DNA of 64,000 nucleotides from Candidatus Micrarchaeota archaeon (GTDB lineage: Archaea > Micrarchaeota > Micrarchaeia > Anstonellales > Anstonellaceae): positions 230 to 64,229 of the forward strand of contig JAKAJC010000004.1 in the NCBI GenBank assembly GCA_021814005.1, in the 5' to 3' direction. Made by a program: the position numbers and the translations under genes. Below the pieces are notes generated by a model that had not been told where the DNA came from, searched no databases, and saw nothing but the letters and a program-made list of their open reading frames with translations. Below, in pieces: positions 50 through 36,487 of this stretch (its first letter is position 1; each line of letters starts with the position of its first letter).

Positions 50-3000
50 CTATTCTTCGCCGAATCTCATTTTGAATCCCTTGCGCGCGGTTTCGAGCGT
101 GAGCGGCACCGTAACTATCCCGCTGGTCGCGGTCACACTGACCTCATATTCCTTTTCAGCCACAATCAGGCTCCTGAATTTCGGCTTGTTCTTATCCAGC
201 GTCTTTGTGTCAAGCTGCCCCAATTTTCCGTACATTTCGGTCGTAGCGTTAAGTATCACGCTATGCTCCCCCTTGTGCTCGTGGATTTCAACGTTGAGCT
301 TGGTCAGAAGGTCGTCCACCGTAACCAGCGCATTCTGGCTTGCGGGGTCTTTCTTCTTTTCCAGCGTTGTCTTGATTTCAGCCAGAGCTGCCGCATAGCC
401 AACCATGGCTTTTTCTGCAGTGGTAAGCTCGAGCGAAAGCCCGCGGCTGACTCCGGCCTTTACTTCGGCGTCGGCCTTGGCCTTTTCCTTTGCCTTGGCC
501 GTTTCCTCTGCCTCGCCAAGCTTGACCTTGCCCATCTTCTCGACGCCCTGGGTCAGCTTCTGCTCGATTCTCACGGTGAGCTTGTTCATGCGCTCCAGTG
601 AACTCTTGAGCGTCTTCTCCTCGGCCGGGCTCAGCTTCTGCCCGCTCGCGGCCTTGCCCTCCAACTGGGCAACAGTCTGCTGCTCCTTGGCGAACCGGTG
701 CACCAAATCTCGTCCTTCGGCGTCTCCGGCAAGTTTTCTTAGCGCCTGCTTGGTGTCCCTTACAACTGCATCCTCGCCCGGCGCCGGCCTGCTCAGGTCT
801 TTGGCATATTGCTCGTAATTCTCGAACCTCTTCTCCAGCAAATGCGCCCGTTTGCTGATGATTTTGTGGGTGACTATGAAAGTGCCGATAAACGCCAGCG
901 CGGCCATCTCCTGCGCGTTGAACTTGCCCTCCCTGACCAGCTCACTTACGAATTCAGTCGATTTCACTCCAAACAGCGCCTCGAGCATCTTGGTCGACAG
1001 CTGTTCGCTCACTTCCATAATCTCGTTTGTTGCCCCGACAACCTTGGCGCCGAATTTGGCATTGCTTGTGACGAGGTCAACTCCGGCCTGCTGGTATCCT
1101 GCCGCCTCAAGACTTGCCTGCTCGAAAAATGCACCGGCCTTGGTGCCGTTCAGGGCGCGGCCCATCATTTTCACCACGCTCGGCCCGCAGGCGCCTATGA
1201 TGGCGAGCGATATGCCGCCCTCCAGCAAAATTGAACCGGCGTTGCTTTGGGTGACTCCCTGCTTCTGCACCTCTTCATACAAGTTATACATTGTGTGGCC
1301 TGCGTCATATACGAAATAGACTGCCGCAATCGGCGCAACGACCGGAGCGGTGACCGGAACAATGGAGCCAATCATCAGCCCGCCCTGCAAAATAAGCGTG
1401 CCCCAGTCGTTCATGAACTGGCTGAACTCTATGCTCCCCTTGTGGTGCAGCGACTTGCCGGCCTCCCACTGTTTCTTGAGGTCTGTGCTGATTTCCTTCA
1501 CAGCCTCCTGATTTGCCTCGTGCTTGAGCGAGTATCTGATGCGGGCCAAATCGGCCGGGCTGGTCTCGGCCATCCTCTCCCTGCCGCCCGGGTAATAGTT
1601 GCCGTCCTTGTCACGGTGGCCGGTTGCTCCGTACCTCCCGTTAAAGTAGTCCTCGACGCTCTTGGCCTCTATCTTGAATCCTTGGGGGTGCGTCTTCTCA
1701 ACATAAACGCGGTATTTGCCGGTGCCGCTTCCCTCCTGCGGCACTAGAGTACCGTTCCCGTAATGGGCGTCCACCATGGCAGATGTGGCGTTCTCCAGCG
1801 TGGTGAATGCGTAGAACTGCCTTGTTCCTGTTTGGACATCAACATAATCGTCCATCATTTTGCGCCTTTGCATAATGCTCTCGGTGTTCTGTCCGAGCGG
1901 CGCCGGCTGGTCTTTCCACTCAATGGAGAAGCTGGTCATGTTGCTGGCGACTTTTTGCAGGCTCTTGCTCCGCTTGTCCTCTGCCCTGCTCAGCTCGTCC
2001 CAGAATTCCGGAGTTGCCTTGAGCCTGTCGATTGTCGCGCCTTTCAAATCCCCGTTGAAAATTCCGGGCGAGATGATGTCCATGACCGTGCTTGTAACCT
2101 GATTTACCTGCGCGCCTGTCGGGTTTTGCGCAAGCGTTGAGAGTGAAAGCCGCAGAGCCTGCAGTTTCATCCGCATGCCGCCTATCGAGCCTTCGGCCTC
2201 CTCGGCCAACTCAAGGCCCTCGCCGAAAAACATCCTGCGCTCGCGGTCTGTGTATTTGCGCAAAACGGCCGCCACGCCGTTCTCGTCAAATCCGCCGCCG
2301 GCCTTCTTGCTTTTGAGTTGCGCCTCAAGATATTCGATGTCTTTTTCCATCTGCGGAACAAGCTCTGCTCCAAGAGAAACAAGCGACTGCTGGAGCTGGC
2401 CGGCTGTTGATGGCGCAACCACTTTTGTCAAATCAACCTCTATGGGCCGCAGCAGCACTTCTGCGCCGCCCAAAATGTCCCTCTCCATGCTTCCAATCAA
2501 AAAGTCTGCCGGCAGCACTCCGTTGTTTTCCACGCAGGCCTCCAACGCTCTAATCGTAAGTTCAAGCGCCTCCGGAGTTTTGCCGCAATATTTCTGGACT
2601 ATGTCGGGATTGTATTTGTATTCTTCAACCAGCTTCTTGAGTTTGGTGATGCCAACCTCGAAATCCCCGTTGCCGATGGCTGCTTTTGCCACCTTCCAGT
2701 TGTTCGCCACCTCGTCGCTTATGCGGATGTAAGACTCCTCGAATATCTCCCGCTCGTCCTGGCTTTTGGCCTTGTTGAATTTTGCCCTGACACTGGTGCG
2801 GCCCTCCTTGATGCCTTCCTGTATTCTGATGTTCTCGTCCGTCTGCCGCTGCACAACCCCTTTCGGGCCGGTGTAATCGCTGGGCATGACATAAGGCATG
2901 GGGGCAATACCGCTGCCGGGCTTGTTCATTTCCTCGTGATTGTAATCCATCTGGCCTTTGAGGTCCTGCCTTAGCTTCTCAAGCAGGCCTTCCTGCCCTT

Positions 3001-4177
3001 TTGCTTTTTCATTGTCAACAAGTTGCGCCATTTTCGCAAGAGTTTCGATTTTGACAGCCACATTGAGGTCCGGGCTCATCACAATGTAATCCGCCTGTCC
3101 CGCAATGCTCTGGTCAATGGCATTGCGCTGTGTCTGGCCTTTGGTTTTTTCGTGCAAATCAAGAAGCGACTGCACCTTGTCAACGGAATTCTGCTCGGTA
3201 TTGACAATTGCGTCAATTTTTTTCTGAAATGCTGAACTGACCGGTTTGCCGGCCTTTTTCTCGCCTGTTTGCTTTTGTTTTTCCGCAATCTCGCGCACCA
3301 CTACTGCGCCGCCCTCGTTCGAGGCGAGCAAATTGTCAATTTCGTAATTATGCAAAATTCCTTTTTCGTCCTTGAGTGAAAACTTTCCTTTTTCATAATC
3401 ATCCATTGCAATCTGCACAAGCTGCCCGTTCGGCAAAGTTACCTGCGTTTTTTCATTTTCCCGCCTCATCTGCTCATACTGCTCGGGCGTGAGTCCGGCG
3501 TCCTCCTGCTGTTGCACGACTTTGCCCTGCTGCTGCACTATCTGGGCCGTTTCATGCAGGCTTTCGGCCTGCTGCGTTGTTTGCGCCAGAGGCATCTGTC
3601 CGGCGCCGGCCGGCACAATGCTCCCGTTCTCGCGAACCACCAGTTCGTATTTCTCGTACTCCGGGCCATTGACCTGATCCAAGACTGCCAGTATGTACTG
3701 TTTTGCATTTTCCTCGGTCAAGCCGAGGCCGATGACCGTGCTTGCAAGATGCGTGATGCTTTCCGGACCCTCTTGCCGGATTTTCTTGACCGCTTCTGTA
3801 AGGTCCATTCTCGTGCCGGCCGGCAGCGAAACAGGGGTGGAATTATCCATGGTCGCAATCATCGGGCTGTGCGCCGGCGCAGAAAGCGTGAGCTGGTTGC
3901 CGACAATCTGAAAAGCGTCTTTATTCATGTTGAGCGATTTGGCAGCGATGTCGATAATCTGCTCTTTTGGCAGGTTGATGAGGCTGATATCAATTGCCGC
4001 CATTATCGGCGCGCCTGTCGGATGCATGGATTCAAGATGCAGGATGGCCTGCCGGTTGTAATTTACCACCAAATCGCGCAGGCCGCATGAAAGCTTGTAG
4101 ATGTTTTCGCTCAGCTTCTGCACTGCGTCATCCGGCTTGGGGGCATATACCCCTCCCGTCAAGTCGAAAACAAACAT
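50..4177 (-). CDS. Giant hypothetical protein (1375 aa): Cys-poor, with a hydrophobic helix cluster at ~aa 930-1130 and a Lys/Glu/Ala-rich C-terminal tail
   Basis: Uninterrupted 4.1-kb ORF directly downstream of rpoP on the same strand. The ATG at 4177 is preceded by TTTTATTAA (minus strand) ~22-30 nt upstream. Only 4 Cys by hand count. No family recognised by eye. Confidence 0.7.
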   Translation of the reverse strand: MFVFDLTGGVYAPKPDDAVQKLSENIYKLSCGLRDLVVNYNRQAILHLESMHPTGAPIMAAIDISLINLPKEQIIDIAAKSLNMNKDAFQIVGNQLTLSAPAHSPMIATMDNSTPVSLPAGTRMDLTEAVKKIRQEGPESITHLASTVIGLGLTEENAKQYILAVLDQVNGPEYEKYELVVRENGSIVPAGAGQMPLAQTTQQAESLHETAQIVQQQGKVVQQQEDAGLTPEQYEQMRRENEKTQVTLPNGQLVQIAMDDYEKGKFSLKDEKGILHNYEIDNLLASNEGGAVVVREIAEKQKQTGEKKAGKPVSSAFQKKIDAIVNTEQNSVDKVQSLLDLHEKTKGQTQRNAIDQSIAGQADYIVMSPDLNVAVKIETLAKMAQLVDNEKAKGQEGLLEKLRQDLKGQMDYNHEEMNKPGSGIAPMPYVMPSDYTGPKGVVQRQTDENIRIQEGIKEGRTSVRAKFNKAKSQDEREIFEESYIRISDEVANNWKVAKAAIGNGDFEVGITKLKKLVEEYKYNPDIVQKYCGKTPEALELTIRALEACVENNGVLPADFLIGSMERDILGGAEVLLRPIEVDLTKVVAPSTAGQLQQSLVSLGAELVPQMEKDIEYLEAQLKSKKAGGGFDENGVAAVLRKYTDRERRMFFGEGLELAEEAEGSIGGMRMKLQALRLSLSTLAQNPTGAQVNQVTSTVMDIISPGIFNGDLKGATIDRLKATPEFWDELSRAEDKRSKSLQKVASNMTSFSIEWKDQPAPLGQNTESIMQRRKMMDDYVDVQTGTRQFYAFTTLENATSAMVDAHYGNGTLVPQEGSGTGKYRVYVEKTHPQGFKIEAKSVEDYFNGRYGATGHRDKDGNYYPGGRERMAETSPADLARIRYSLKHEANQEAVKEISTDLKKQWEAGKSLHHKGSIEFSQFMNDWGTLILQGGLMIGSIVPVTAPVVAPIAAVYFVYDAGHTMYNLYEEVQKQGVTQSNAGSILLEGGISLAIIGACGPSVVKMMGRALNGTKAGAFFEQASLEAAGYQQAGVDLVTSNAKFGAKVVGATNEIMEVSEQLSTKMLEALFGVKSTEFVSELVREGKFNAQEMAALAFIGTFIVTHKIISKRAHLLEKRFENYEQYAKDLSRPAPGEDAVVRDTKQALRKLAGDAEGRDLVHRFAKEQQTVAQLEGKAASGQKLSPAEEKTLKSSLERMNKLTVRIEQKLTQGVEKMGKVKLGEAEETAKAKEKAKADAEVKAGVSRGLSLELTTAEKAMVGYAAALAEIKTTLEKKKDPASQNALVTVDDLLTKLNVEIHEHKGEHSVILNATTEMYGKLGQLDTKTLDKNKPKFRSLIVAEKEYEVSVTATSGIVTVPLTLETARKGFKMRFGEE

Positions 4178-9614: not shown

Positions 9615-9623
9615 TTTTATAAA
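9615..9623 (+). promoter_or_regulatory. TATA box of the nine-gene operon (leaderless first gene)
   Basis: TTTTATAAA ends 22 nt upstream of ATG 9646. There is no SD between them. Confidence 0.5.
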
Positions 9624-9645: not shown

Positions 9646-12600
9646 ATGTCCCGCTCTAGGCCGCCTTCATATGCAGTATATGGCATAGCCCTCATTCTCA
9701 CCCTCTCATTCCTGCTTATTCTCATTCCGCCAGCGTCTGCCGGCGCAATCTGCTACGACTCGGCCAACACGACATATGTGCAGCTCAATTCAGACTGCAA
9801 CGCGCCGGGCCAGTTCTGCAATGTCGAGGCCTATGTCTACACCATGGTTTCGGCCCCGGGAGCCACCACTCCCAAATCGGAAGGAGTCAGCGGCGGGCTG
9901 GTAATCCTCAGCTGGGGGCAGGGCACAAGCAGGGCCTGCAAAATGGTCACCGGCTCCGACGGCAAGAACACGGCCAAACTGTCAGGCCCGAACTACCCTC
10001 CCGGCGCAACCTGCTGGAACGTGCGCGCAGTCTTCTGCCCGTTCACAAAAGACAACACAATAGAAAGCGGGCAGACCACGATGGCCGCCTGCGCCGGCCT
10101 GGTCGACGACGCCGGCAAATCCATCACTCGCATTGACTGGAATCAGGCGAGTCAGCTGCCAGACTGCGCCGCGCCTGCGCATGCGGTGAACAATTCAGCG
10201 ATGAATCAGGACCTCTCGCCATTTTTCCGCCCCTCGCAGGACTCGACAATGATATGCAACAGCGGCCCTTCTGCGGGGCAGGTGTCATTCTGCTGGGGCC
10301 TGGCCCTGGTGTTCGGGCTTCTCTTCTCGGCCTCTTTCCTCTCGGGCCGCAACCCGCTGATGTTCTTTGATTTCGGGGTGGCGCGCGGCGTGCGCATGAA
10401 CCGCGCGGCCGGCATATACACTCCAATCACCCAGAACGTGTCCATCAACCCGGTTGCCATTCTGCAGGCAATCGACAAGGCCGGCAGCATGGCTTCGACC
10501 GCGGTCGGCTCAGGCAGCAAGGACGACGAATACAACAAGAACTCGGACGGCACGGAAAAAAGCTTTGGCCAGAAGATGGATGCCGCCGGCCGGAAAGGAT
10601 TTATCACAAACGCGGTCGGCAAGACAATCAACGGCCTGTCGGACAGCTTGTTCGGCAAACTGACCGGCCAGTCGAGCGACGACTTGACCAAATCGCGGAA
10701 CGCGGCCTCGAAAGGTTTCACCTTGTCCAATGCGCTCAATTCGGTCGGGCAGAGGGCCATGGAAGGAATGGTGCTCGGCGCGCTCGGCACCCTGGCGGGC
10801 GGCAAGTTCGGCAAAATCGCGCTCGCCCACACTGGCAAGGAAGTTGCCAGCCAGATGTCGAAGGCGGCCGGTCACGGCATAGCGAGCGGGCTGGAAGCCG
10901 TCACTCCCAACGCCGACCTGGCCAAGAATGAAGGCAACAAAGGCCTTAGCGACAAAGACAGGGCCGAGCAGCTGAAAGTGCAGATTGCAGCCGCGCTTGA
11001 CAAGGATGTAAGCCTCTTCAACGTCGTGTCCGACGGCCGCGGCGGTTATTCAGTCAAGATGGGCGACGTGGTGGTCGGCGGCGTCACCCGGCCGAACGGC
11101 GCTGACGGGCCGCCGCTCTGCACATTCAACGACATCAGCTCCACGGGGCTGAGAGTGTCCAACGTGCTCCAAAATCTTGCCTTCGGCTCCAGCGCCGTGA
11201 CCTGGGTAATCCTCGATCCAGGCAAAGGTGTTGTAAAGGGGGCGGATGGCAAGTGGGCGCTTGCCGACCCCAATAACAACGGCATAACCGGGGCTTCCAA
11301 CATTTTCAACCGCGAGCAGATGATTGTTTCGGCTTCCAGCGGAGGCGTGAGAATACAGCTTCCCAACGGCCAGTGGGTGTCGATGAGCGGCAGCAGCGCC
11401 TTCTCCGACCATGTCGCCACCATACTGGATTCTATCGGGCTTTTCGTTCAGGGGCAACTCAACATCTTGGATTTGCTCAAGTCCATACTTTCGCCGGTGC
11501 TGTCCGTCGGGACGGTGGCCTCCAACGCCTTTGCCGCCCAGAACCACCCGACTGTGCAGGACGCAACCCGCATTATAGAGTTCAACAACCAGAATATTTT
11601 CATCAAGTCAAGCGGCGTCTATGAAAAAGACGAAACCACCGGCGAACTCAAGCCAATCGGCACCTATGACGTGAAAACAGAAACAATCAAATTCACCAAC
11701 GACATCCATGACCCCAAAAATCCGGCAAGCGAATCTTATCTGGAGGCCGGCGCCACCTACAAGCTCTCGCCCGACGGCACCATGACACTGGTGGACAAAG
11801 CGCATCCGCCAAAAGCACTTCCGGTTGTCATCACCACTGCCGCCAAAACCTCTGTAATCACAATAGATTCAGACAGCAACATCAAGAGCAAGGGGCTTGA
11901 CGGCGAAAAGGTCGCGCCGCCGGCCGCGCCGGCCGAAAAGGTCAATGTCGCGGTCAAACTCGCGAACGTGAACGGCGGCGGGGAGGAGAAGCTCGATTTC
12001 ACAATCACCCCGATGACATCAGACCACTCCGGCACGCGCGAGCTTGTCACCCTCTCGCACTTTGACCCGGTCGCGAAAGTCAACCTCCAGGTAATCGCCG
12101 AAGTGGACAACACCAAGAAGCCGACCGATACCGACTATATCGTGGGCGTGAAAGCCATTGTCAACCGCGCGCCTGAGACCGGCGGCCATGTTGTGGTCGG
12201 AGAGGTGCTGAGCATCGGTGACAGAAACGGCACGCCGTTGAAAGACGGCAAGTTCACATTTGACAACAACACATATGGCATCGGAAGCGCCACACTCTCA
12301 AGCGATGTCAAGATTGAACTCAAGTCCCCCGCCACTCAGACTGCGCCGGTGAAAGAGATATCAATCTCACCCACTACTCCGCCCGAAAAGATGACCGTTA
12401 TTCCGCTTGGCGCAACAGCCACGAGCGGTGATCCCGACGCCAAACTTGTGCTGGCCACCACGCTTAACACCAATACCCAGTACGTGATGGACAACACAAA
12501 CGAGGCCAATCCGAAAGTGCTGGCAGTAATCAAACGCGACGAGGACGGGCACGCGACAGCATACAAACCGAATGCCGACGGCACGGCCAGCTCGACCGAA

Positions 12601-13956
12601 ATCGACAAATTCGTTTTCCACGGCACGCAGCATGAAGTCGACATCACGACCAGGCACTATCCTCTCGGCAGCGAGCCGAGCACTGTTGTCATCTCCGACA
12701 CGCGCGTGGTGGACGGCGCAAGCGGCGACGCGTGGAAGGCGCAGCAAACCCTGCCCAGCGGCGAAAAGGTCATCTCATTCAACGGCACCACCTGCACTGT
12801 GCGCGAAACCGAAGTGGCATATGGCGCGGGTTCCAAGCCAGAAATGGTGGTATATGACGGCGGCCTGCCGGTCGGCACGGCTCAGTTCGATGACAAAGGC
12901 CATCTTCAAAGCGTGACAATAGACTACGACAATCAGGGCAGGAAGCTCTACGACCTGCCGCCCGTCGGTCCCAACCCCCCGTCAGTGCCTATTGCAGTGT
13001 TTGGCGACTATGCGCCCGGCACCGTGGTAAAGGCCAGCGGGCCGGAGGGCAAGGACCCCGAGCTCACAGAATATCTCAATTCTTCGCAAATGAACCGCCA
13101 CATGGTATTCGACGCAATCGGCGCGCAACTGGCCTCGGGCATAGACAGATTCGCCTCAGGCATGGACTACTTCGGCCTGTTCGGCAAGAAATTCTCTCCA
13201 GAAGGCGGCATGCAGTGGCTCACTGCATCGCTTTACAGCGAATATGTGAAATCTCCCATCGAAACAGCGCAACCTGGCCGGGGCTTTGACAGCATCAGGC
13301 GGGACGAGCTTAGGGAACTTTACGAAAAGTCGGGCGCAGAAGACTATGACGCCATGCGCCGTGAGGCAGAAGAGAAAAAGCAGCAGGAAGTTACGAAGTG
13401 GGTTCAGGATGTTGACAAGTTCAACAAGAGCGGCGCTGCCGGCCCTACTCCGCCCATGCCAGAGCCGCTGGAAAGAACCATGCCCTCGCGCTATGTCGAT
13501 TATCTGGTCAAACAGGTGGACGCTGGCATTGCCCCCGTCCTTTCCGCCCCGTTCACGGAAGGAATTCCCTATCGCGTTCAGGACAAAGAGGCGCGGCATG
13601 AGTCAGTTCTTTTCAAAAACCAGGCGGAGTTCGACGAGCTCAACTCAAACAATGACCCGAACAAGTATGCGATGAAAATAATCGAAAAAATAAATGCATA
13701 TGAAAACGACCTGCTCAAGCGCGTGAACAGCAGCGCGCAGAGCGGCGACCCCAACTACAAGCCGTTCACCAACTTGGGCGAGGCGCTCCTCGCTCACAGT
13801 TTCGCCACAACCGAGGACCCGAACATTGTCAAGCCCACGTGGGCCAAGAATCTTGACCCAGACCTTGTGAACGAGATGAGCAATTACATGAAAGTCTCAT
13901 CGTCTGTCAAGAAACTCGACAACCTGACGAAATACTATGAAAAGCAGGGCCAATGA
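9646..13956 (+). CDS. Operon gene 1: 1436-aa bitopic giant protein with a signal-like helix, a ~200-aa Cys-containing loop, a second TM, then a ~1190-aa Cys-poor region
   Basis: Same frame as track ORF 9535..13956. Start moved to ATG 9646 (MSRSRPPSYAVYGIALILTLSFLLILIPPASAGA). 10 of 12 Cys lie before or within the TM at ~10285-10345 (hand count). Arg residues follow the TM (positive-inside). No family recognised. Confidence 0.85.
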   Translation: MSRSRPPSYAVYGIALILTLSFLLILIPPASAGAICYDSANTTYVQLNSDCNAPGQFCNVEAYVYTMVSAPGATTPKSEGVSGGLVILSWGQGTSRACKMVTGSDGKNTAKLSGPNYPPGATCWNVRAVFCPFTKDNTIESGQTTMAACAGLVDDAGKSITRIDWNQASQLPDCAAPAHAVNNSAMNQDLSPFFRPSQDSTMICNSGPSAGQVSFCWGLALVFGLLFSASFLSGRNPLMFFDFGVARGVRMNRAAGIYTPITQNVSINPVAILQAIDKAGSMASTAVGSGSKDDEYNKNSDGTEKSFGQKMDAAGRKGFITNAVGKTINGLSDSLFGKLTGQSSDDLTKSRNAASKGFTLSNALNSVGQRAMEGMVLGALGTLAGGKFGKIALAHTGKEVASQMSKAAGHGIASGLEAVTPNADLAKNEGNKGLSDKDRAEQLKVQIAAALDKDVSLFNVVSDGRGGYSVKMGDVVVGGVTRPNGADGPPLCTFNDISSTGLRVSNVLQNLAFGSSAVTWVILDPGKGVVKGADGKWALADPNNNGITGASNIFNREQMIVSASSGGVRIQLPNGQWVSMSGSSAFSDHVATILDSIGLFVQGQLNILDLLKSILSPVLSVGTVASNAFAAQNHPTVQDATRIIEFNNQNIFIKSSGVYEKDETTGELKPIGTYDVKTETIKFTNDIHDPKNPASESYLEAGATYKLSPDGTMTLVDKAHPPKALPVVITTAAKTSVITIDSDSNIKSKGLDGEKVAPPAAPAEKVNVAVKLANVNGGGEEKLDFTITPMTSDHSGTRELVTLSHFDPVAKVNLQVIAEVDNTKKPTDTDYIVGVKAIVNRAPETGGHVVVGEVLSIGDRNGTPLKDGKFTFDNNTYGIGSATLSSDVKIELKSPATQTAPVKEISISPTTPPEKMTVIPLGATATSGDPDAKLVLATTLNTNTQYVMDNTNEANPKVLAVIKRDEDGHATAYKPNADGTASSTEIDKFVFHGTQHEVDITTRHYPLGSEPSTVVISDTRVVDGASGDAWKAQQTLPSGEKVISFNGTTCTVRETEVAYGAGSKPEMVVYDGGLPVGTAQFDDKGHLQSVTIDYDNQGRKLYDLPPVGPNPPSVPIAVFGDYAPGTVVKASGPEGKDPELTEYLNSSQMNRHMVFDAIGAQLASGIDRFASGMDYFGLFGKKFSPEGGMQWLTASLYSEYVKSPIETAQPGRGFDSIRRDELRELYEKSGAEDYDAMRREAEEKKQQEVTKWVQDVDKFNKSGAAGPTPPMPEPLERTMPSRYVDYLVKQVDAGIAPVLSAPFTEGIPYRVQDKEARHESVLFKNQAEFDELNSNNDPNKYAMKIIEKINAYENDLLKRVNSSAQSGDPNYKPFTNLGEALLAHSFATTEDPNIVKPTWAKNLDPDLVNEMSNYMKVSSSVKKLDNLTKYYEKQGQ

Positions 13957-14032
13957 TGAAGCGAACAGATGAGAAAAACAAATGATGAAGCGAACAAATG
14001 GGATTTGCAAAAATTTATTGAAGTGATTTGAA

Positions 14033-14971
14033 ATGGCAGACGAACTCGAACCGCCCGTCAACCGCCTCGGCATGAGCGCGGCGGAATTCAGCGAACTGGC
14101 GATGCGCCTGCGCGCGAAGCAGCCGCAGCTGCGCGCCATTGCCCAGCGCCTGCTGGCCGCGCGGGTCGTTATCAATTCAGTCGAGGAGCCGCTGCGCGAC
14201 GCCACAAGCAAACTGCTGGAGGCCGGGGAAATCCCGCCGGCAAAACTCAAAGACCAGTTCCTGTCCATGCGCCGCGTCAAGGAGGATGCAGAGCGCACTG
14301 CCGACTTCTACAAAGCGGCCGGCAACGCCCTCTCGTCGCTCTTTCTCTCCCCGCTGCCGCAGCAAAAGCATGCGGACGCGGCCGGCAAGAGAATGATTGA
14401 GCTTGGAGACGAATGGGAAAAATGCCGCTCAACAAATAGGCCCCGCGCCGATTACATCCGCCTGCTGCTCCGCGATTTGAGTTACACGATATTCTCCCTG
14501 CCCCTCACCCCGCCCGCCGACGGCATGGGCGCGGACCAGCGGCGCGAACTGCTGATGAGCGAAGCGATGGGGCGCGCAAAAGTCCAGACTCTTCAAACGC
14601 AAATTCCATTCGACACCGGCAACGGCATCATCTACCGCTCGCTGGAGCAGGCGCAGGCCGAAGCCGCGCAGCAAGCCGGACAAAAACTGGCGCCAATGCC
14701 GGGCCAGCCTTCGCGCCGCCCGTTGTCGGCCGTGGTCTATTCCCCTCCTCCGTCCATCGCCTCCGCTCCCCGCTCCAGAGCAAGCGGCGCCGGCATAAAG
14801 CCGGACCGCGCGGAGATGGTGCGGCAGATGGCGGTGCAATCGGCCCGCACGCGGCGCATCACTCCCGCGATAAGGCCGATTCCCCCCGCCGGAAAAACAA
14901 AATCATCCAAATCAAAATCTTCAGCGCGAAAACCAGCGGCAAAGAAAAAGAAACCAGAGCGGGGTGCCTGA
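14033..14971 (+). CDS. Operon gene 2: 312-aa soluble protein, helical N-terminal part with a Pro/Ser/Arg/Lys-rich basic tail
   Basis: No hydrophobic segment. Tail reads ...PPAGKTKSSKSKSSARKPAAKKKKPERGA. A GAAGTGA SD-like site lies 6 nt upstream of the ATG. Confidence 0.8.
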   Translation: MADELEPPVNRLGMSAAEFSELAMRLRAKQPQLRAIAQRLLAARVVINSVEEPLRDATSKLLEAGEIPPAKLKDQFLSMRRVKEDAERTADFYKAAGNALSSLFLSPLPQQKHADAAGKRMIELGDEWEKCRSTNRPRADYIRLLLRDLSYTIFSLPLTPPADGMGADQRRELLMSEAMGRAKVQTLQTQIPFDTGNGIIYRSLEQAQAEAAQQAGQKLAPMPGQPSRRPLSAVVYSPPPSIASAPRSRASGAGIKPDRAEMVRQMAVQSARTRRITPAIRPIPPAGKTKSSKSKSSARKPAAKKKKPERGA

Positions 14972-14974
14972 GCA

Positions 14975-16141
14975 ATGGTCGATTTTCTGGTGGCTGTCCC
15001 ATACGGCATAGCCATCGGCACCGGAATCGTCGCATTCGCCTACATGATAGGCTCGCTTCTGCAGTCGGACGCCATGAAATCGTGGAGCCGCCTTGAGCTT
15101 GGAGAGCTTGTGGTCTCGGCCATTCTTGTGGTGCTGGTTGCCGAGGCGCTCAGTCCGGCGGGGCAGGCCGGCATCATCAAGGCCTTCACCGGCGTGTCGA
15201 TGGGAATAGACGAGCTGCAGTCGAGGATGTATGTCTACATGGAGCTGCCGCTGGAAAAAGTGACAGAAGCCGTCGCAATAAGCAGCATGCATCTCAGCCG
15301 CATCATTTCCTACAATTACAACTACCAGCTGCCAATTCCCTACTTTTCGCCCACCGGCTCATCCAGCCCGGGCGCGGGAGCGGGGCCGCTGCAACTGTCG
15401 GTAATGATTGGCATGGATTCCACCGCTCTCAATCTCATGCTGGTCCATGCGGTCAAGCTGGTGTTTGTCTTCCTGATTTTCCTGCTGGGCACGTTCTTCA
15501 TGCCGCTCGGCATCATCCTGCGCTTCATCCCGCCTTTGCGGAAAATCGGAAGCATGCTGCTGGGCACGGGCCTGGCCGTCTATCTGGTGTTTCCCATCGC
15601 CATCTTCTGGGGCACGTCACTGCTGGCATTTTCGGTGAGCCCGCCCGATTACGACGCTGGCCGCCTGGTGCAGGACCCCGGCCGGCCTCCAACTTCCGGA
15701 TTCGTGTGCAGCACCGTCACGTCCGCCCTCTACAGCGCGGGCGAGCAGATTCCCGCATGGATAATCGGCGGAATAGTCTGCATCCCGACAATCATCACCG
15801 GCGGATACGTGGCCTGCGTCGGCACGCCCGGCTCGCCTCCGACATACGGGGGCGGAGTTGCCGGCATCGTTGCATACCTGATGTGGCTGTTCCAGTACGG
15901 CTTCCCCATCGCCACAACACAGTCGCTCAAGAGCGCGGGCGACACGCTGACGCCGGACTTCGTCTCCTCCGGCGTGTACCAGCCCATGGTGGGCTACCTT
16001 CTTCCATTGGCGGTGGTGCGAAATCTTGCGGTTCTTTTCATCGTAATCCTCGCGCTGGCGGCAACAATAATCCTGGCGCGCCAGTTCGCGCAGGTGCTGG
16101 GCGCGGAAGGGCAGTTCTACGGGCTGACAAAACTGGTGTAA
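14975..16141 (+). CDS. Operon gene 3: 388-aa polytopic membrane protein, paralog family member
   Basis: Starts 3 nt after the gene 2 stop. Carries Y-x17-E (AFAYMIGS...SRLEL), LRFIPPLRKIGSMLLGTGLAVYLVFP and the C-terminal VLGAEGQFYGLTKLV motifs. Confidence 0.85.
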   Translation: MVDFLVAVPYGIAIGTGIVAFAYMIGSLLQSDAMKSWSRLELGELVVSAILVVLVAEALSPAGQAGIIKAFTGVSMGIDELQSRMYVYMELPLEKVTEAVAISSMHLSRIISYNYNYQLPIPYFSPTGSSSPGAGAGPLQLSVMIGMDSTALNLMLVHAVKLVFVFLIFLLGTFFMPLGIILRFIPPLRKIGSMLLGTGLAVYLVFPIAIFWGTSLLAFSVSPPDYDAGRLVQDPGRPPTSGFVCSTVTSALYSAGEQIPAWIIGGIVCIPTIITGGYVACVGTPGSPPTYGGGVAGIVAYLMWLFQYGFPIATTQSLKSAGDTLTPDFVSSGVYQPMVGYLLPLAVVRNLAVLFIVILALAATIILARQFAQVLGAEGQFYGLTKLV

Positions 16142-16144
16142 TGG

Positions 16145-17197
16145 ATGGAAAACACGGCAGGAAAAATCGGTTCGGTTTCCCGTTTCGGGTTCGCCCCACT
16201 CGCAGTCCTCTCCCTGCTGTTTCTAGTCTCATCCTCTTCGGCCATCTTCGAGCCGCAGCTCTCGTGCTTCAACCAGACCTACAACATGGTGTATGATTTC
16301 GGCTCGCCAATCATCGCCGTCATTTTCATCATGGGCGTGCTCATCGCGATTGCGTACATGCTCGCGCAGCTTTTGGAAAAACCCGAGCTGTCGGTGTGGG
16401 CCAAGAGCGAAATAGTCACCCTGGGCTTTTCCATCCTTCTCATCGGCGCGGTGGTGGGCACGTTCGGACTTTCCTGCACAATCTCGAACTCGATGGTGTT
16501 TTCCGACTCGCGCGAATTCGCCAACAGCAGCGTGGTGGGGTCCGGCGCGCCGGCCAACGTTTTCACCAGCCCCGCGCAGAGGGCGGTGCAATATATCGAC
16601 AAGCTCACGCAGACCTACGGCCTGCGCCTCGCATCCGACCTCACCCGCCAGGCGGTGAACGACCAGCTCGGCGCGGTGGCATACGCGTACTGGTCCGTGC
16701 CGGTGCTTGACGGCGGCGGGCTTGCATACAAAGCCAACCAGCGCGCATGGGCGGCGCAGAAAGACATTCTCATCGACCTCTACATGCCGATGATGATTTC
16801 GCTGCAGGTGCAGAAATTCATGCTCAACCTGGCCATGGTCGGCGTGCTGAACATTCTTCTGCCGGCCGCGCTGCTTTTGCGCACGTTCTTCTTTTCGCGC
16901 GACATCGGCAACCTGCTCATCGCGCTCTCGTTTGCAATCTTCTTTGCCCTGCCGGTAGTCTATTCGTTCGGCTTCGAGGCGTCGGCAAATCTGCAGAAAC
17001 AGCTCTGTCCGTCGGGCTGCGACCCGCTCAATCCGTTCGGGCAGCTGAACATAGTCAAGGACCGCGTGGTTGGCGACAGCTATGCGAGAATCGGCTTCAT
17101 CTCCACACAAGCGATTTTAATCCCTAATCTCGCGCTGGTTGTGATGATAACCATGACCATGGCCCTAAACAAGGCCTTGAGAGGGTTCACAGGATGA
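16145..17197 (+). CDS. Operon gene 4: 350-aa polytopic membrane protein, paralog family member
   Basis: Starts 3 nt after the gene 3 stop. Carries AIAYMLAQ...WAKSEI and LRTFFFSRDIGNLLIALSFAIFFALP. The C-terminal tail motif is degenerate (KALRGFTG). Confidence 0.85.
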   Translation: MENTAGKIGSVSRFGFAPLAVLSLLFLVSSSSAIFEPQLSCFNQTYNMVYDFGSPIIAVIFIMGVLIAIAYMLAQLLEKPELSVWAKSEIVTLGFSILLIGAVVGTFGLSCTISNSMVFSDSREFANSSVVGSGAPANVFTSPAQRAVQYIDKLTQTYGLRLASDLTRQAVNDQLGAVAYAYWSVPVLDGGGLAYKANQRAWAAQKDILIDLYMPMMISLQVQKFMLNLAMVGVLNILLPAALLLRTFFFSRDIGNLLIALSFAIFFALPVVYSFGFEASANLQKQLCPSGCDPLNPFGQLNIVKDRVVGDSYARIGFISTQAILIPNLALVVMITMTMALNKALRGFTG

Positions 17198-20100
17198 GAA
17201 ATGAAAACGAAAACCCGGCGCGCCGCGAATCCGGCGTTTGCTTTGCGCCAGTCAATACGGCGCCAGCCGGCTTCCTGCCGCTGCACGCGCCGCATGTTTT
17301 CCTCTTCCTCCTCTGCCTTCTCTGTATCTCTCCAATAATTTTCTCCCAAAACACCACAATCCAGCCCGTGCTCACCGCCCAGAACGCGACTTTCGGGTTC
17401 GACAATTACGTGCGGGCAACCCTCGCGGCCGCCGCCCTCATGGCCGCAATCATGGCTCTGGTCTACATGGCAGGCATATTTTTCCAGAGCGAGGATGCCA
17501 AACAGCTGGCGCGCACTGAAATTCTGCAGACTGCTCTCAGCGTGATAATAGTCGCATTTCTTCTGGCCATTCTGCTCGGCGTCGACACCGGCCTTCGCCT
17601 TACCTCGGCCGAAATAGTCTCGCCCTGCGTGGGCCGCACCCTGCCCGCAAGCATCACGTCCGCCACTCTTCTCAACCAGTATGCATTCTGCTATGCGCAG
17701 GGCCTCAACGAAATGGCCATCGCGCAGGGCGACACCACAATCCGCAAGTCTGTCACATTTGCCAAGAAAGCGTATCGCATGGAAGGTTTCCAGACAGATT
17801 TGTGGTGGCTGCTCTACGGCGGCCTGACGCGCCGGCCCGATGCCAACCTGCGCCTTGACTCGGAAATCATGGGACAAGAGTTCACTCTTCTCACGTCATT
17901 CATGGTGAGCCTGCAGGGGCAGCTGGCATTTCTGCAATATATCGTGCCCGCGCTCGCGCCGGCGCTGCTTTTCCTTGGCGTCATCCTCCGCTCGCTTTTC
18001 TTCACCCGCAAACTTGGTGGCATGATGCTGGCAGCGGGAGCCGGATTATTGCTGGTGTGGCCGGCCACCTATCTGCTCTCATGGTTCACATTGCAGGTTG
18101 CGGTGTTCGGGCCGTCGGTGATGGGCGAGGAGCCGGGCTCGACCTGTCCAACCTCATGCAAAATCCTTCCCCCCGCCGGCTACAACATCTCAACAGCAAA
18201 TCCCGATTCATGGGGCAGTCCGCCTGCGGGTTCGCCTTATGCAACCGGCGCAATCAGCGCAAAGCAAATGGCAAGCGCCGGCGGCAGCTCGATTGCGCCT
18301 GACATCGGCGACGAGGCGGCCTGGAAACTGCGGGGCGTCCAGACCTGTTATCCGCAATACAATTACACTGAAGACAAGACAACCGGCACCCGCACATACA
18401 CTCTGCCGGCCGGCTATTCCAGCAGCGTGCCCGTGCAGTCTTCGGACAAGTGCCCCTCGGAGTGCCGCTTCCTTCCCACCCCGACGGATTTGAACTGCGA
18501 CCTGGCCGCCTGTGACAACATACCAATAGCCTGCAAGGCAATCAGGGCCATGAACCTTTCCACCTCGCCCCTGCCGAACCCGCCGGACAACTGCAACTCG
18601 TGCACCAGCTGCCCGGCGTTCTGCCGCACAATTTTGCCGCAGGTGAAATATGCAAACCCCGCAAACCCGGCCGCCGGAGTTGTGCCGACAACGAACGCGA
18701 ATTCATGCTCGGCCAATCCCGGCAATGCAACCCTATGCCCGCTCTACTGCCGCTCCTATTTGCACACGGACGCCAGCAACACGATTTCCTATTCCACTCC
18801 CGACTGCCAGGCCGCATGCCAAGCGACTCTTGACAACAAGAAAGACGCGGCAACGAGCCAGCCCGACTGCATGCTCGGCATTCCGGCCGCCATGATGGAG
18901 TGCAACACCCCCAACGTGTGCGGCCCTGCCATGAACCTTGAGGCTGCCATCGCCTCGGGCCGCACCGACCTCTGCCCGATTGAATGCCGCGTGAATTTCA
19001 ATTCATCTGGCACCGAGGACAGATACAAGGACCCGACATTCAACCAATACTGCACCGGCTCCGGCAAGTTCGGCACCGCGTGCGACACGCAATGCCCGAG
19101 CACGTGCAAGGTGAAAGCAAGCGCCGAGAACGCGGCGCTGCCAAATTCATTCTCGCTGGGCGTGCCCAACTCGTTCATAGTTTCGACCGGCGCAGGCAGT
19201 GTTCTTTGCGCGGCAGCCCCCACTTTCACAAACGGCCAGATGGACTCGAGCGTGAACGGGCAGTGCGCACGCTGCCCGCTCTCATGCCGCCTGCGCAACC
19301 CCTCCTCCATCCTCGACCTTGACAACAACCACAGCACTTACTTCTTCTCGCAGTCGCATTATGCCCTCACCTGCAATTACCGCAACACCACCCCAATCAT
19401 CCTGTACTCCGGCGCGTGCAGAAATTCCACATTCCCGCCCGGCTGGCTTGCGTTCGCTTCCGAAGATCCATCCGGCATTTCGTTGAGCCAAATCGGCCGC
19501 GGCCCGCCGGAATGCGCGCCAACCGCCCGCATTTACCTGCGCATGGATTCGTCAGACCCGCTCTGCCCGCTCTTTCTGGCCCCAATCCCGCCTTACATCA
19601 AGGACGGCACTCTTTCAAACGACCCTTCCAATTCCGCGGTGTCTGCCATCATTCCGCCAAACACCGACGTGTCGGCCGAATGCTCCACTCCCGATGCGCA
19701 GAAATACTGCCTCGGCAAAGACCCGCAGGGCCAGCCCTATTGCGACATTTCCTGCCAGCCAGACCGCGCCGTGAACGGGCCGTTCTACTGCCACTTGACC
19801 GACCTCTACAGCCCGCTCTCCAGCATTCCCGACAACACGCAGCGCTGCGGCGCCTGTTCGAGCCCGGCAGCAGACAATTCCAAGGGGCCGCAATGCCAAG
19901 TCATGCTGACAAGCGGCAGCACCCTCTATCTGCCCAAAGGCTGCGACCCGTCCTGCGCGCCCGGCTCGCTTGACACTGCGACCGGAATAATCCTCAACCC
20001 CGACACAGACCCCAAGTCGAGGGCTTCATGCGGCGGCTTCTGCTATCCGCGCCTGCCCATCCCCTCGTGCAGCGCATATGCCCCCGCCAGCACAACCAAT

Positions 20101-21423
20101 CCCAACGGCCGCGCGTTCGCCTCCTGTGCCGCCTGCCCAACCGACTGCCGCTATGATTATCTCACTGCCGCGGGCATCAGGCGCCCAAACAGCCAGGACA
20201 ACTACTGCGGCTGGAGCTTCACCGCGCCAACCGCATGCTTTTCCATCACGCTGGAGCGCCTGCGCGGCAGCGACATCCCAAGCGTGAACAACACCCGCTA
20301 TTATTCGTGCACGCAGACCGAAGCAGGCCAATACCACTGGGTGCGCACAAGCAGCGGCGTTGACAACAGAAGCGACAGCGGCTGCAACGCGGCCTGGTAT
20401 CCGATTGGCCACTTCACCAACCAAACCGTTGCCAACCTCGCGTGCGGCCCAGGCACTTTCAGCAACACCACGAGCGATGTCTACTCATGCACGCCGGTCC
20501 ACAAGTATCCGGCCCTCGACAGCCTTGTCACCTCTTCGGGCGGGCCTTCCGATTACCGCGAATGCGGAGACATAAGCGTCAACGGCCAGAATCCGAACAA
20601 CAACCTCTGCGGCGCGCGCACGTTCGGCGGCGCAAGCGTCCAGCTGTGCAAGAACGACCGCGCGGCAACAGATTCGTGCTTTGCCCACTTCAACGCGCTC
20701 GCGGTTGCCTGCCTGCCGATTACCGGCGTGGTGAATGATTACACAGACCCCGCCAACAATCCGACCAAGGCGGAGGAGAGCTGCCAGAACTGCCCGCTCT
20801 TCTGCCGCATAGACAACGGCGGCCAGATATGCTCGCCGTGGTCTGCCGGCGGCGAGCCTCCCAAATGTGATTTCCCCAACCAGTGCGACCGGCGCACTGC
20901 TCAGGGCAGCGGCTACTGCGGCATCCCGTCATCAGCATTCAAAATTGGCCAGGGCTGCGCGAATTACACCGGCGGCTCCGGCGTGGGCTGCCCCGCCCGC
21001 TGCCGCGTTTCACTGCCGTCCGGCAACGTGCCATACGGCTGCTCGGGCGGTGAAATCGGCAACGCATGCTCGCCCGGCAATCTTGATTCGGCATGCACCG
21101 CCACCCCGCCCGACAATCCGTGCGCAGGCTGCGGCGAATGCGACACCGACTGCCGCTCCACGCCTTATGTGCGGCAGAACTGCGACGACCTCTGCCTGCC
21201 GACAGACTTTGCCACCGGAGCCTCGCCCATCACGCCCAAGGACCTTTTGATGTCGTGGGAAGGCGCGTCGGGCAACCCCGACTGGCGCTCATTGGGCTCT
21301 TTGGGCATCGCCGCTTTCCTGCTGCCGATTCTCAACATCATACTCACTCTTGCATTCATCCGCAGCCTCTCGCCGGTGCTGGGCGGCGACATCGAGATTC
21401 CGGGAATACTCAAGGTGCTGTGA
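17194..21423 (+). CDS. Operon gene 5: 1409-aa paralog with a ~1020-aa Cys-rich ectodomain inserted before the last TM
   Basis: ATGA start/stop overlap with gene 4. Carries ALVYMAGI...LARTEI, LRSLFFTRKLGGMMLAAGAGLLLVWP and the C-terminal VLGGDIEIPGILKVL. There are 80 Cys between codons 318 and 1334 (hand count), and many N-x-S/T sequons. Confidence 0.88.
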   Translation: MRNENENPARRESGVCFAPVNTAPAGFLPLHAPHVFLFLLCLLCISPIIFSQNTTIQPVLTAQNATFGFDNYVRATLAAAALMAAIMALVYMAGIFFQSEDAKQLARTEILQTALSVIIVAFLLAILLGVDTGLRLTSAEIVSPCVGRTLPASITSATLLNQYAFCYAQGLNEMAIAQGDTTIRKSVTFAKKAYRMEGFQTDLWWLLYGGLTRRPDANLRLDSEIMGQEFTLLTSFMVSLQGQLAFLQYIVPALAPALLFLGVILRSLFFTRKLGGMMLAAGAGLLLVWPATYLLSWFTLQVAVFGPSVMGEEPGSTCPTSCKILPPAGYNISTANPDSWGSPPAGSPYATGAISAKQMASAGGSSIAPDIGDEAAWKLRGVQTCYPQYNYTEDKTTGTRTYTLPAGYSSSVPVQSSDKCPSECRFLPTPTDLNCDLAACDNIPIACKAIRAMNLSTSPLPNPPDNCNSCTSCPAFCRTILPQVKYANPANPAAGVVPTTNANSCSANPGNATLCPLYCRSYLHTDASNTISYSTPDCQAACQATLDNKKDAATSQPDCMLGIPAAMMECNTPNVCGPAMNLEAAIASGRTDLCPIECRVNFNSSGTEDRYKDPTFNQYCTGSGKFGTACDTQCPSTCKVKASAENAALPNSFSLGVPNSFIVSTGAGSVLCAAAPTFTNGQMDSSVNGQCARCPLSCRLRNPSSILDLDNNHSTYFFSQSHYALTCNYRNTTPIILYSGACRNSTFPPGWLAFASEDPSGISLSQIGRGPPECAPTARIYLRMDSSDPLCPLFLAPIPPYIKDGTLSNDPSNSAVSAIIPPNTDVSAECSTPDAQKYCLGKDPQGQPYCDISCQPDRAVNGPFYCHLTDLYSPLSSIPDNTQRCGACSSPAADNSKGPQCQVMLTSGSTLYLPKGCDPSCAPGSLDTATGIILNPDTDPKSRASCGGFCYPRLPIPSCSAYAPASTTNPNGRAFASCAACPTDCRYDYLTAAGIRRPNSQDNYCGWSFTAPTACFSITLERLRGSDIPSVNNTRYYSCTQTEAGQYHWVRTSSGVDNRSDSGCNAAWYPIGHFTNQTVANLACGPGTFSNTTSDVYSCTPVHKYPALDSLVTSSGGPSDYRECGDISVNGQNPNNNLCGARTFGGASVQLCKNDRAATDSCFAHFNALAVACLPITGVVNDYTDPANNPTKAEESCQNCPLFCRIDNGGQICSPWSAGGEPPKCDFPNQCDRRTAQGSGYCGIPSSAFKIGQGCANYTGGSGVGCPARCRVSLPSGNVPYGCSGGEIGNACSPGNLDSACTATPPDNPCAGCGECDTDCRSTPYVRQNCDDLCLPTDFATGASPITPKDLLMSWEGASGNPDWRSLGSLGIAAFLLPILNIILTLAFIRSLSPVLGGDIEIPGILKVL

Positions 21424-21428: not shown

Positions 21429-22718
21429 ATGGCGCGAGCTCAAAAAACAAAAACAAAAAATGAAAAAGAAAACGGCTGCTCCCGTTTCGCGAGCATTGGC
21501 TTCGCGCGCGCCAGCCCTGCGCGCGCCAGCCCCGCGTTTTCTTCGGCGCGCTCGAGCGCGCTGCGGCATTTTGTTTTCTTGTTTATTACGGCCTCTCTGT
21601 TCCTTATCCCATCAATTCACGCGGCCGCCGCATGGCAGCCGGCAGTTTTCGCAGCCGTGCTCATCTCCGTCTCCGTGCTGGCAGTCGTTTACATGATTGT
21701 AACCGTGCTGAAATGGGACAGGTTCAAGGGCATCATAAAAGACGAGCTCGGCCAGACGTTCATCACATTTCTTCTGGTGGTCCTGCTTGTTGCAGGCATG
21801 TCCGAAGGCGAAACCCAAGCGTCGAAACTTGTGTGCGGCATTTCCGGCATGCCAGACTCCGGCTTCTGCCCGACTCCCGCGCGCGACACCATGATTTTCT
21901 GCAAAACTGCCGGAAGCAATCCCACCACATGCCCCATCACCGGCAGCCAGCCGCTCAACAACTGGGCCCTCTCGCTCAACACCAACGCGCAGTCTCTCCT
22001 GAGCACCAACCTGCTCGCCAAGGCGCTGGAGTTCAACCAAAAACTCGGCTATGTGAGCTCGGTGTCGGGCTTCTGCAACATGCTTGGCGTGGGCTTCTCC
22101 ATCGCCGGCTGCTCCACTTACGGCGTGCTGCGCGGACCCGTCGGCCAGCTGCTCAACGCAATCGGCATCGGATTGATGGATTTGCAGGCAGAGCGGATTC
22201 TGCTCCAGCTCAACACTGCCGGTTTCACGCTGAGCCTGCTTTTGCCGCTTGGCATCCTGCTCCGCGCGCTGCACTGGACCAGAAAGGCGGGCGGCACGCT
22301 CATCGCCCTCGCACTCTCGCTCTACTTCATTTTCCCCGCGTCGCTTTTGCTTGGGCAGGCGATGGCAGACCAGTTCATCAAGACGGGCAGCCCGTATCAG
22401 GCCCTCGCAGCCGGCCCGACGTTTCCGGCAATGAGCGGCAGCTACAATCCGCTCGACACATCTACCGTCGAATGCAATCCATTTGACCCAAGCACCGGCA
22501 AGATGGTCAACACCATGAACAGCTTCCTCACGCGCAGTCCTTCCGACCCCGCGAACGTCAAGAATCCATCCACCATCGACCAGATTCTTTTCGTTGTGAT
22601 GATACGCAACCTGATGATAACCATCGTGGCGCTCACAGTCACCCTCTCCGCCACGCGCGTGCTGGGCCACGCCCTTGGCGCGGAAATCGACGTGTGGGGC
22701 ATTGCGAGGCTGAGCTAA
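21429..22718 (+). CDS. Operon gene 6: 429-aa polytopic membrane protein, paralog family member
   Basis: The track ORF (21093..) overlaps gene 5. The ATG at 21429 lies 5 nt after the gene 5 stop, with AGGTG upstream. Carries AVVYMIVT...IIKDEL, LRALHWTRKAGGTLIALALSLYFIFP and the C-terminal ALGAEIDVWGIARLS. Confidence 0.85.
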   Translation: MARAQKTKTKNEKENGCSRFASIGFARASPARASPAFSSARSSALRHFVFLFITASLFLIPSIHAAAAWQPAVFAAVLISVSVLAVVYMIVTVLKWDRFKGIIKDELGQTFITFLLVVLLVAGMSEGETQASKLVCGISGMPDSGFCPTPARDTMIFCKTAGSNPTTCPITGSQPLNNWALSLNTNAQSLLSTNLLAKALEFNQKLGYVSSVSGFCNMLGVGFSIAGCSTYGVLRGPVGQLLNAIGIGLMDLQAERILLQLNTAGFTLSLLLPLGILLRALHWTRKAGGTLIALALSLYFIFPASLLLGQAMADQFIKTGSPYQALAAGPTFPAMSGSYNPLDTSTVECNPFDPSTGKMVNTMNSFLTRSPSDPANVKNPSTIDQILFVVMIRNLMITIVALTVTLSATRVLGHALGAEIDVWGIARLS

Positions 22719-36311: not shown

Positions 36312-36392
36312 CTATTTTTTTGCTGTTTTGCTGTTGCCTATTTTTGCTATTCTGTTACTGCCTATTGTTCGCTGTTCTGCTTTGCCTGCTTC
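36312..36392. repeat. Adenine-poor T/G/C low-complexity tract with degenerate GCTGTT / TGCCTATT repeats
   Basis: Sequence is ttttttgctgttttgctgttgcctatttttgctattctgttactgcctattgttcgctgttctgctttgcctgctt, in a divergent intergenic region. It generates the artefactual N-terminus MLFCCCLFLLFCYC of track ORF 36320. Confidence 0.6.
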
Positions 36393-36487
36393 AATTCGGG
36401 CATAAAAGAATATATACCCCAATCAGGGCACGGGGAGCGCATAAGCCAATCCATCTCCCTTTTATTCCTCCATGCCTTTATTTTTTT

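Follow-up and report, generated by a model that had tools for sequence, protein, structure and literature searches.

The stretch of DNA analyzed here, in the following called the window, comprises 64,000 nucleotides of the chromosome of a Candidatus Micrarchaeota archaeon, a member of the DPANN archaea (assembly GCA_021814005.1, contig JAKAJC010000004.1), and contains an operon of nine genes that extends over 22.2 kb of the plus strand (9646-31864). The gaps between the operon genes range from -4 to +13 nt, with the exception of the 76 nt between genes 1 and 2. Gene 1 (9646-13956) encodes a bitopic membrane protein of 1436 residues, gene 2 (14033-14971) a soluble protein of 312 residues, genes 3 to 8 six polytopic membrane proteins, and gene 9 (27200-31864), the last of the operon, a predicted extracellular protein of 1554 residues. 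An earlier sequence-only reading had taken the uneven distribution of cysteines in these proteins as a sign that the locus encodes large masses on both faces of the membrane, joined by six paralogs, in the layout expected for a trans-envelope machine.

Read from its ATG, gene 1 contains twelve Cys residues (36, 51, 58, 98, 123, 131, 149, 174, 204, 216, 492 and 1050), ten of which fall within a 181-residue stretch (residues 36-216; binomial P = 5e-8). This partition had been described earlier with exact counts and correct coordinates and was also present in three further orthologues; when all four proteins were pooled, 37 Cys in 1057 N-terminal residues stood against 8 Cys in the 4644 residues of the C-terminal arms. 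A transmembrane (TM) scan with a simple Hessa-type hydrophobicity scale revealed hydrophobic segments at residues 9-27 (a signal-like helix) and 214-232 (TM2, SFCWGLALVFGLLFSASFL; 10285-10341). Two TM-competent segments were likewise detected in the orthologues P0005 and L007, and in the orthologue from L008 TM2 alone falls below the scan threshold, yet the N-terminus of this protein starts hydrophobic and signal-like. Past residue 240 no TM-competent segment was found in gene 1, the best 19-mer scoring +6.4, and a moderately hydrophobic stretch at residues ~603-630, considered as a third TM helix, was ruled out at this same value. The N-terminus (MSRSRPPSY, with two Arg) is followed by a 19-residue h-region and the sequence ASAGA, and the protein thus displays what characterizes a type I bitopic protein with a cleavable signal peptide: a positively charged n-region, a hydrophobic h-region that ends in a cleavage motif of small residues and, further on, one stop-transfer helix with a flank that obeys the positive-inside rule. 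Arg residues behind TM2 had been pointed out before, and indeed the 25 residues after TM2 contain 4 K/R versus 1 D/E in all four gene 1 orthologues. The resulting predicted ectodomain (residues 28-213; 9727-10284) carries nine Cys, the tenth, C216, is located at the outer edge of TM2, and the remaining 1204 residues (233-1436; 10342-13953) form a C-terminal arm with only two Cys (0.17%), which from its charge, the TM scan and the positive flank of TM2 is predicted to be cytoplasmic.

The orthologues of gene 1 were found in related loci belonging to Candidatus Micrarchaeota or Micrarchaeia, with 38-46% identity for P0005, which is encoded in L003, and ~30% for the proteins from L007 and L008 (hhalign E = 1.6e-55 over residues 19-692). 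The operon starts with gene 1 in the window as well as in L003, L007 and L008, and a distant relative is present in L004. Four ectodomain Cys and the Cys of FCW are invariant in the alignment, and conservation peaks where the ectodomain ends, in the TM helix (FCWxLAxIFGLLF) and in a juxtamembrane motif, GRNPLxFxDxGxxRxxRxNRxAGxYTPxTQxVSxN, which may also be written GRNPLMFFDFGVARGVRMNRAAGxYTPxTQNVS. The TM helix together with this motif likely represents a docking element. Beyond residue ~700 the arms have diverged past easy recognition. A word-index homologue search with gene 1 returned only the protein itself and one orthologue, and scans of metagenomes for further relatives, by alignment or with a degenerate DNA pattern of the juxtamembrane motif, returned none. 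Inspection of the sequences of genes 1 and 2 revealed no Walker A motif. A conserved string of the arm, AGGKFGK(I/V), superficially resembles a P-loop but was rejected as such a motif since it lacks Ser/Thr and sits in a region predicted to be disordered; as TLAGGKFGK(I/V) (10789-10812; residues 382-389), with a hydrophobic stretch before it, it is common to gene 1 and P0005.

The product of gene 2 has neither a TM segment nor a signal peptide and contains a single Cys (C131), in agreement with its earlier description as a soluble protein with one Cys and a basic tail. It consists of a conserved head of ~200 residues and a basic tail rich in Pro, Ser and Ala, with 23 K/R versus 4 D/E in the last 107 residues.

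Genes 3 to 8 were confirmed as six paralogs by alignment and cross-hits, which revealed identities of 18-24% between them: gene 3 (14975-16141; 388 residues), gene 4 (16145-17197; 350 residues), gene 5 (17194-21423; 1409 residues), gene 6 (21429-22718; 429 residues from the ATG at 21429), gene 7 (22719-25991; 1090 residues) and gene 8 (26005-27198; 397 residues). Common to these proteins are a YM motif in TM1, a conserved Glu after TM1, the motif P(L/V)G(I/L)xLR....R..G in the loop that connects TM3 with TM4, a Pro in TM4 and a C-terminal tail. Large loops take turns with short ones rich in K/R and with the conserved LR....R..G loop. In gene 5, the last outside loop is expanded by an insert of 1075 residues with 80 Cys (residues 296-1370; 18079-21303), and in gene 7 a 716-residue N-terminal ectodomain with 17 Cys (residues 37-752; 22827-24974) is placed before the core, while genes 3, 4 and 8 are devoid of a large ectodomain. 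From the position of the gene 7 ectodomain ahead of the core, that of the gene 5 insert within the last loop and the abundance of K/R in the short loops, the core is predicted to span the membrane five times with its N-terminus outside and its C-terminus inside. An AlphaFold model of gene 3 (mean predicted local distance difference test score (pLDDT) 88.4, predicted TM-score 0.74) depicts a bundle of long helices reaching past the membrane.

The order of the genes, 3-4-5-6-7-8(-9), is identical in L003, L005, L007 and L008, and gene order is kept in all five related Micrarchaeota loci that are long enough to show more than two operon genes. Furthermore, the tails are specific for each paralog, with GGExQLYGLSKLV in gene 3, GGDIEIPGLSKVF in gene 5, GAEIDVWGIARLS in gene 6 and GEEVDASKLIAMI in gene 7; the corresponding tails in the window read LGAEGQFYGLTKLV in gene 3 and LGGDIEIPGILKVL in gene 5. 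The paralogs thus represent ancient orthologous groups, and the maintenance of their specific tails and of a fixed order across distant genomes argues for an obligate membrane hetero-oligomer. A generic tail motif occurs in 118 of 149 family representatives. In the window, the tails of genes 3, 5, 6, 7 and 8 are short, predicted to be cytoplasmic and of the form LGxE/D....G(L/I)xK(L/V)x (e.g. 16097-16138 and 21379-21420), and gene 4 is without the conserved tail. Where genes 1 and 2 are missing from a genome, the paralog tails are retained as well. Word-index searches with family alignments yielded only 10-11 proteins, and the family became apparent in an exhaustive profile search, which found 3010 cluster representatives at E <= 1e-3; the named members of this core family belong to Micrarchaeota and Anstonellales.

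The ectodomains were found to evolve faster than the cores. Moreover, the gene 3 orthologues of L005 and L006 carry a 517-residue Cys-rich ectodomain that is missing from gene 3 of the window. In both loci (L005:8537-11125, L006:3594-6198) the orthologue is split, with an open reading frame of 517/518 residues that comprises the Cys-rich ectodomain and TM1 and ends in ...AYMA(A/S)QMFNL before a TAG (L005) or TAA (L006) stop codon. A few codons further on the remainder of the core begins anew, without a change of frame in L005 but in the +1 frame in L006. Since it is conserved in two Micrarchaeia genomes, this split is probably real, in which case TM1 would be supplied in trans. In the ectodomain of gene 7, tightly spaced pairs of Cys recur every ~105-117 residues (C249/C254, C354/C359, C461/C469, C578/C583 and C695/C700), a spacing that suggests five repeated modules. 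No internal repeats were found by self-BLAST of genes 1, 5, 7 and 9.

The signal peptide of gene 9 ends in a lipobox-like LSGC (residues 45-48; 27332-27343) that agrees with the lipobox pattern L-[AS]-[GA]-C, and the gene 9 orthologue of L005 (L005:19442-19741) has LAGC at the same position. In view of this correspondence, gene 9 is probably a lipoprotein anchored by lipid rather than by a TM helix.

The sequence-only reading had further used Cys density as a marker of the oxidizing outside. For the exported segments this use proved justified. The parts of genes 5, 7 and 9 placed outside, for which ~80, ~20 and ~75 Cys had been estimated, contain 80, 17 and 75, respectively (out of totals of 85 in gene 5 and 18 in gene 7; in gene 9 all Cys follow the N-terminal hydrophobic segment), and the Cys content of the operon ectodomains amounts to 2.4-7.5% compared to 1.24% for a set of 11 cytoplasmic proteins with housekeeping functions that are encoded in the window. 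Similarly, 101 of the 149 family representatives possess a non-TM stretch of at least 200 residues, and the median Cys content of these is 6.15%. The reverse did not hold, as the Cys content of the gene 1 arm was seven-fold lower than that of the cytoplasmic set (Fisher p = 2e-10). In addition, the Micrarchaeota S-layer protein has been described as almost free of sulfur-containing residues (bioRxiv 10.1101/2021.04.28.441871). High Cys content thus tracks exported segments in this organism, whereas low Cys content is no marker of the cytoplasm and cannot be used to place the arm inside, since the arm is far poorer in Cys than cytoplasmic proteins and the S-layer protein is nearly sulfur-free. 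From a methodological point of view, only the first half of the rule is usable. The density of N-glycosylation sequons was dropped as a further compartment marker, because the counts, estimated by hand, roughly follow the Asn/Ser/Thr composition.

The cytoplasmic placement of the giant arm, which had been proposed from its low Cys content, is nevertheless probably right on other grounds, namely two membrane crossings combined with two N-terminal Arg, the K/R flank after TM2 and a cytoplasm-like charge. K+E accounts for 12.3% of the gene 1 arm and for 11-15% of the orthologous arms, compared to 12.9% in the cytoplasmic proteins and 2.6-5.7% in the ectodomains, and K+R+E+D for 22-25% of the arms compared to 23.9% in the cytoplasmic proteins.

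Taken together, we consider the odds somewhat better than even that the operon encodes a multi-subunit, hetero-oligomeric complex in the cell envelope of this obligate episymbiont, with a Cys-rich outside and, in this lineage, a cytoplasmic scaffold. In such a complex, the six 5-TM paralogs, each with its own short cytoplasmic tail, would form a membrane hetero-oligomer as the core. On the outside, disulfide-rich ectodomains would build a large structure, to which the loop of gene 5 and the N-terminus of gene 7 would contribute as parts attached to the cores, while the gene 9 lipoprotein and the N-terminal domain of gene 1 would be anchored beside them. Gene 1 would act as a type-I-like subunit with its signal peptide and Cys-rich domain outside, and its TM helix and Arg-rich juxtamembrane motif would probably dock to the paralogs. 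The fast-evolving, charged and partly disordered gene 1 arm of ~1200 residues would remain on the inside, probably together with the basic-tailed gene 2, and would probably serve as a scaffold or tether rather than as a motor. The result would be a layout with several thousand disulfide-rich residues outside and, in some lineages, ~1500 residues inside. Of the trans-envelope machine that had been suggested earlier, the multi-subunit envelope complex is supported, while a powered machine is not, as genes 1 and 2 contain neither an NTPase nor a Walker A motif, two related loci have no gene 1 beside the operon and gene 2 is confined to two loci.

Several observations weigh against this interpretation. 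The physical association of the nine products is deduced from the structure of the operon, and the TM segments were placed with the simple scale mentioned above. Library scans revealed no P-loop protein in 9646-31864, and the operon encodes no energy source. The composition of the arm is mixed, as its contents of Asn (5.8%) and S+T+N+Q (24%) are nearer to those of the ectodomains than to those of cytoplasmic proteins, and a Cys content so much lower than is usual for cytoplasmic proteins would be compatible, too, with export of a protein that has no disulfides. An AlphaFold model of the arm, built from a three-sequence alignment, reached a pLDDT of 36.9 and was judged unusable; at most it hints at disorder over ~200 residues, a middle part rich in beta structure and alpha helix in the last ~270 residues. 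Moreover, in L005 and L006 the operon has no gene 1 upstream of it but a gene for a TATA-binding protein, and the sole orthologue of gene 2 was found in L003 (47% identity), with none in L004, L005, L006, L007 or L008. Since gene 1 does not precede the operon in L005 and L006 and gene 2 is limited to the window and L003, the cytoplasmic mass is not a universal part of the system and is accessory to the conserved core. In the lineage of the window such a mass appears to be real, although its identity as a motor is unsupported.

DPANN archaea have tiny genomes and need physical contact with a host, and to our knowledge hardly any of the proteins of which the contact site is built have been identified. 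From the lifestyle of the phylum, the maintenance of a 22.2 kb operon in a phylum described as having reduced genomes (PMC8975820), and cryo-electron tomography of the micrarchaeon ARM-1, we infer a role of the operon at the symbiont-host interface, just as the topology and the assembly into one complex are deduced. In ARM-1, a large 21-nm barrel-shaped complex was observed below the S-layer of the symbiont at the docking sites of host nanotubes (PMC11329633). It is a distinctly unlikely, more far-reaching version of the envelope-complex interpretation that the operon encodes the symbiont half of a host junction, either the ARM-1 21-nm barrel or an equivalent conduit, in which the paralogs would form a VirB6-like hetero-hexameric pore, the ectodomains the barrel, and the gene 1 arm and gene 2 a receiving platform. 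With the operon, specific candidates are at hand for the components of envelope complexes that cryo-electron tomography has revealed in Micrarchaeota co-cultures, and the symbiont side of the junction becomes a question that is testable in existing co-cultures. No description of the operon was found in full-text searches of the literature, scans of the operon proteins against Pfam, NCBIfam and PHROGs gave no meaningful match, searches of Protein Data Bank (PDB) sequences with gene 1, gene 2 and the core-family profile gave no match, and the ~3000 cluster representatives of the core family have no annotation in the libraries searched.

The operon is embedded among archaeal housekeeping genes, including those for proteasome alpha, an exosome Rrp4-like protein, GatD/GatE, the thermosome, a DUF2070 protein and three tRNAs, and its chromosomal position adjoining the proteasome and exosome genes is kept in relatives. 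A TATA-like box (TTTTATAAA; 9615-9623, plus strand), read from the sequence ~27 nt 5' of the gene 1 ATG, suggests a putative promoter giving rise to a leaderless or short-leader archaeal transcript. After gene 9, a convergent NMD3-like gene (32066-32740, minus strand) is followed by a gene for a DUF2070 membrane protein (33108-34910, plus strand). In L008 this pair lies directly upstream of gene 1 (L008:579-3567), and in L007 an NMD3 gene is found there (L007:5053-5784), so that the operon and these neighbors are linked but rearranged among the window, L007 and L008. Further downstream, past a tRNA gene, two ATPase genes were noted: an AAA+ protein (36320-37924) with weak Mg-chelatase, LonB-lid and zinc-ribbon matches, ~4.5 kb from the operon, and a DUF87/HerA-like ATPase (38962-40506), 7 kb from the operon and past divergent genes as well. 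No link of either to the operon was found, and neither is present in the visible flanks of L007 and L008. A second giant orphan protein near the operon, of 1375 residues, is encoded at 50-4177 on the minus strand; it is highly charged (K+E 17.4%), contains 0.29% Cys and has some hydrophobic stretches near residues 930-1010 with no predicted TM segment. No Pfam or PHROGs match and no relative in the fetched loci was found for this protein.

The alternative that survives best, although we regard it as unlikely, is a cluster for the display of adhesins, in which the 5-TM cores would be mere anchors for independent Cys-rich surface proteins, gene 1 would be one more such protein with a passive cytoplasmic tail, and nothing would cross the envelope. 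Such a cluster would account for the absence of an ATPase, a Walker A motif or a known transport or secretion domain from the operon proteins in library scans, for the faster evolution of the ectodomains relative to the cores, and for the swapping of ectodomains between subunits across lineages, as exemplified by the 517-residue domain on gene 3 in L005 and L006. However, six paralogs in fixed order with paralog-specific tails in distant Micrarchaeota would be unexpected for independent anchors, three of the six, namely genes 3, 4 and 8, lack a large ectodomain that could be displayed, and conservation of gene 1 is highest at the TM and juxtamembrane segment.

A translocon derived from a type IV secretion system (T4SS), in which genes 3 to 8 would be extremely diverged homologues of VirB6, CedA or TedA that form a pore for the exchange of DNA or protein with the host, appears very unlikely. 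VirB6 has about five TM helices, a periplasmic N-terminus, a cytoplasmic C-terminus and a large outside loop, so that the predicted core of genes 3 to 8 resembles it in topology. A comparison of the core model by Foldseek gave TrwI (7o3v) the joint-highest probability, 0.60, with an E value (0.16) that is not significant. In archaea, the VirB6-like proteins CedA and TedA are part of DNA-import systems (PMC9905601), and in the obligately host-dependent Rickettsiales VirB6 occurs as tandem paralogs with very large extensions (PMC7648143), a further likeness to the operon. In contrast, homology of the core family to VirB6 remained unsupported at the level of sequence and profile: comparison of the family alignment with TrwI and seven plasmid VirB6 homologues by hhalign gave a probability of <1%, no match to PF04610 (TrbL/VirB6) was detected by Pfam in the window proteins nor, at E <= 1, in 39 family members, and no PDB sequence matched. 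Likewise, 9646-31864 contains no VirB4/CedB-type ATPase or P-loop protein and no coupling protein, and there is no gene for a VirB2/CedA1/TedC-like pilin, as all operon genes encode at least 312 residues and the gaps measure at most 76 nt. The operon also differs in its six distinct paralogs in fixed order, its Cys-rich ectodomains and its non-mobile chromosomal context beside the proteasome and exosome genes; an origin from a mobile element was rejected, as no homologue of gene 3 turned up by tblastn among plasmids and phages. Given that the operon is devoid of the defining partners, a VirB4 ATPase and a pilin, and that membership fails at the sequence level, we do not file the operon under the T4SS, and a mode of action as a VirB6-type platform is no more than a suggestive lead.

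The least probable alternative, export of the gene 1 arm and perhaps of gene 2 as a Cys-free extracellular stalk or effector that would leave all large masses outside, draws on the low Cys content of the arm, reminiscent of the S-layer protein, and on its ectodomain-like Asn and Ser/Thr content, but is hard to reconcile with only two hydrophobic segments, an Arg-rich flank after TM2 that is kept in four orthologues, a K+E content above that of every operon ectodomain, the lack of a signal peptide in gene 2 and the similarly low Cys content of the charged protein at 50-4177, which has no predicted TM segment.

Beyond the T4SS, the favored envelope complex can be set beside three further groups of proteins. 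The top Foldseek matches of the core model were Tweety homologues, with an E value of 0.044 and a TM-score of ~0.19 for TTYH2, which are not significant. TTYH1-3 are 5-TM proteins with an outside N-terminus, an inside C-terminus and an extracellular helical domain held by disulfides; they are, however, eukaryotic proteins, and with scores at E >= 0.044 no relationship is claimed. Giant surface proteins also occur in further episymbiotic DPANN archaea with small genomes, an example being the SPEARE proteins of Nanohaloarchaeota; these are secreted or membrane proteins of very large size and are presumed to function in host contact. They differ from the operon products in being single giant proteins with recognizable protease, adhesion or nuclease domains, and are not known to have a six-paralog polytopic core, extreme Cys richness or a cytoplasmic arm. 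SLP_Mh (Micr_00292), an S-layer protein, shares with the operon products its origin in the same phylum, an extracellular location in the envelope, where it is abundant, and an N-terminal signal or anchor. However, the scarcity or absence of sulfur-containing residues that characterizes this S-layer (bioRxiv 10.1101/2021.04.28.441871) is not found in the ectodomains of genes 5, 7 and 9, the operon ectodomains being set apart from SLP_Mh by their high Cys content. SLP_Mh is mainly useful here as a counter-example to the notion that a Cys-poor protein is located inside the cell.

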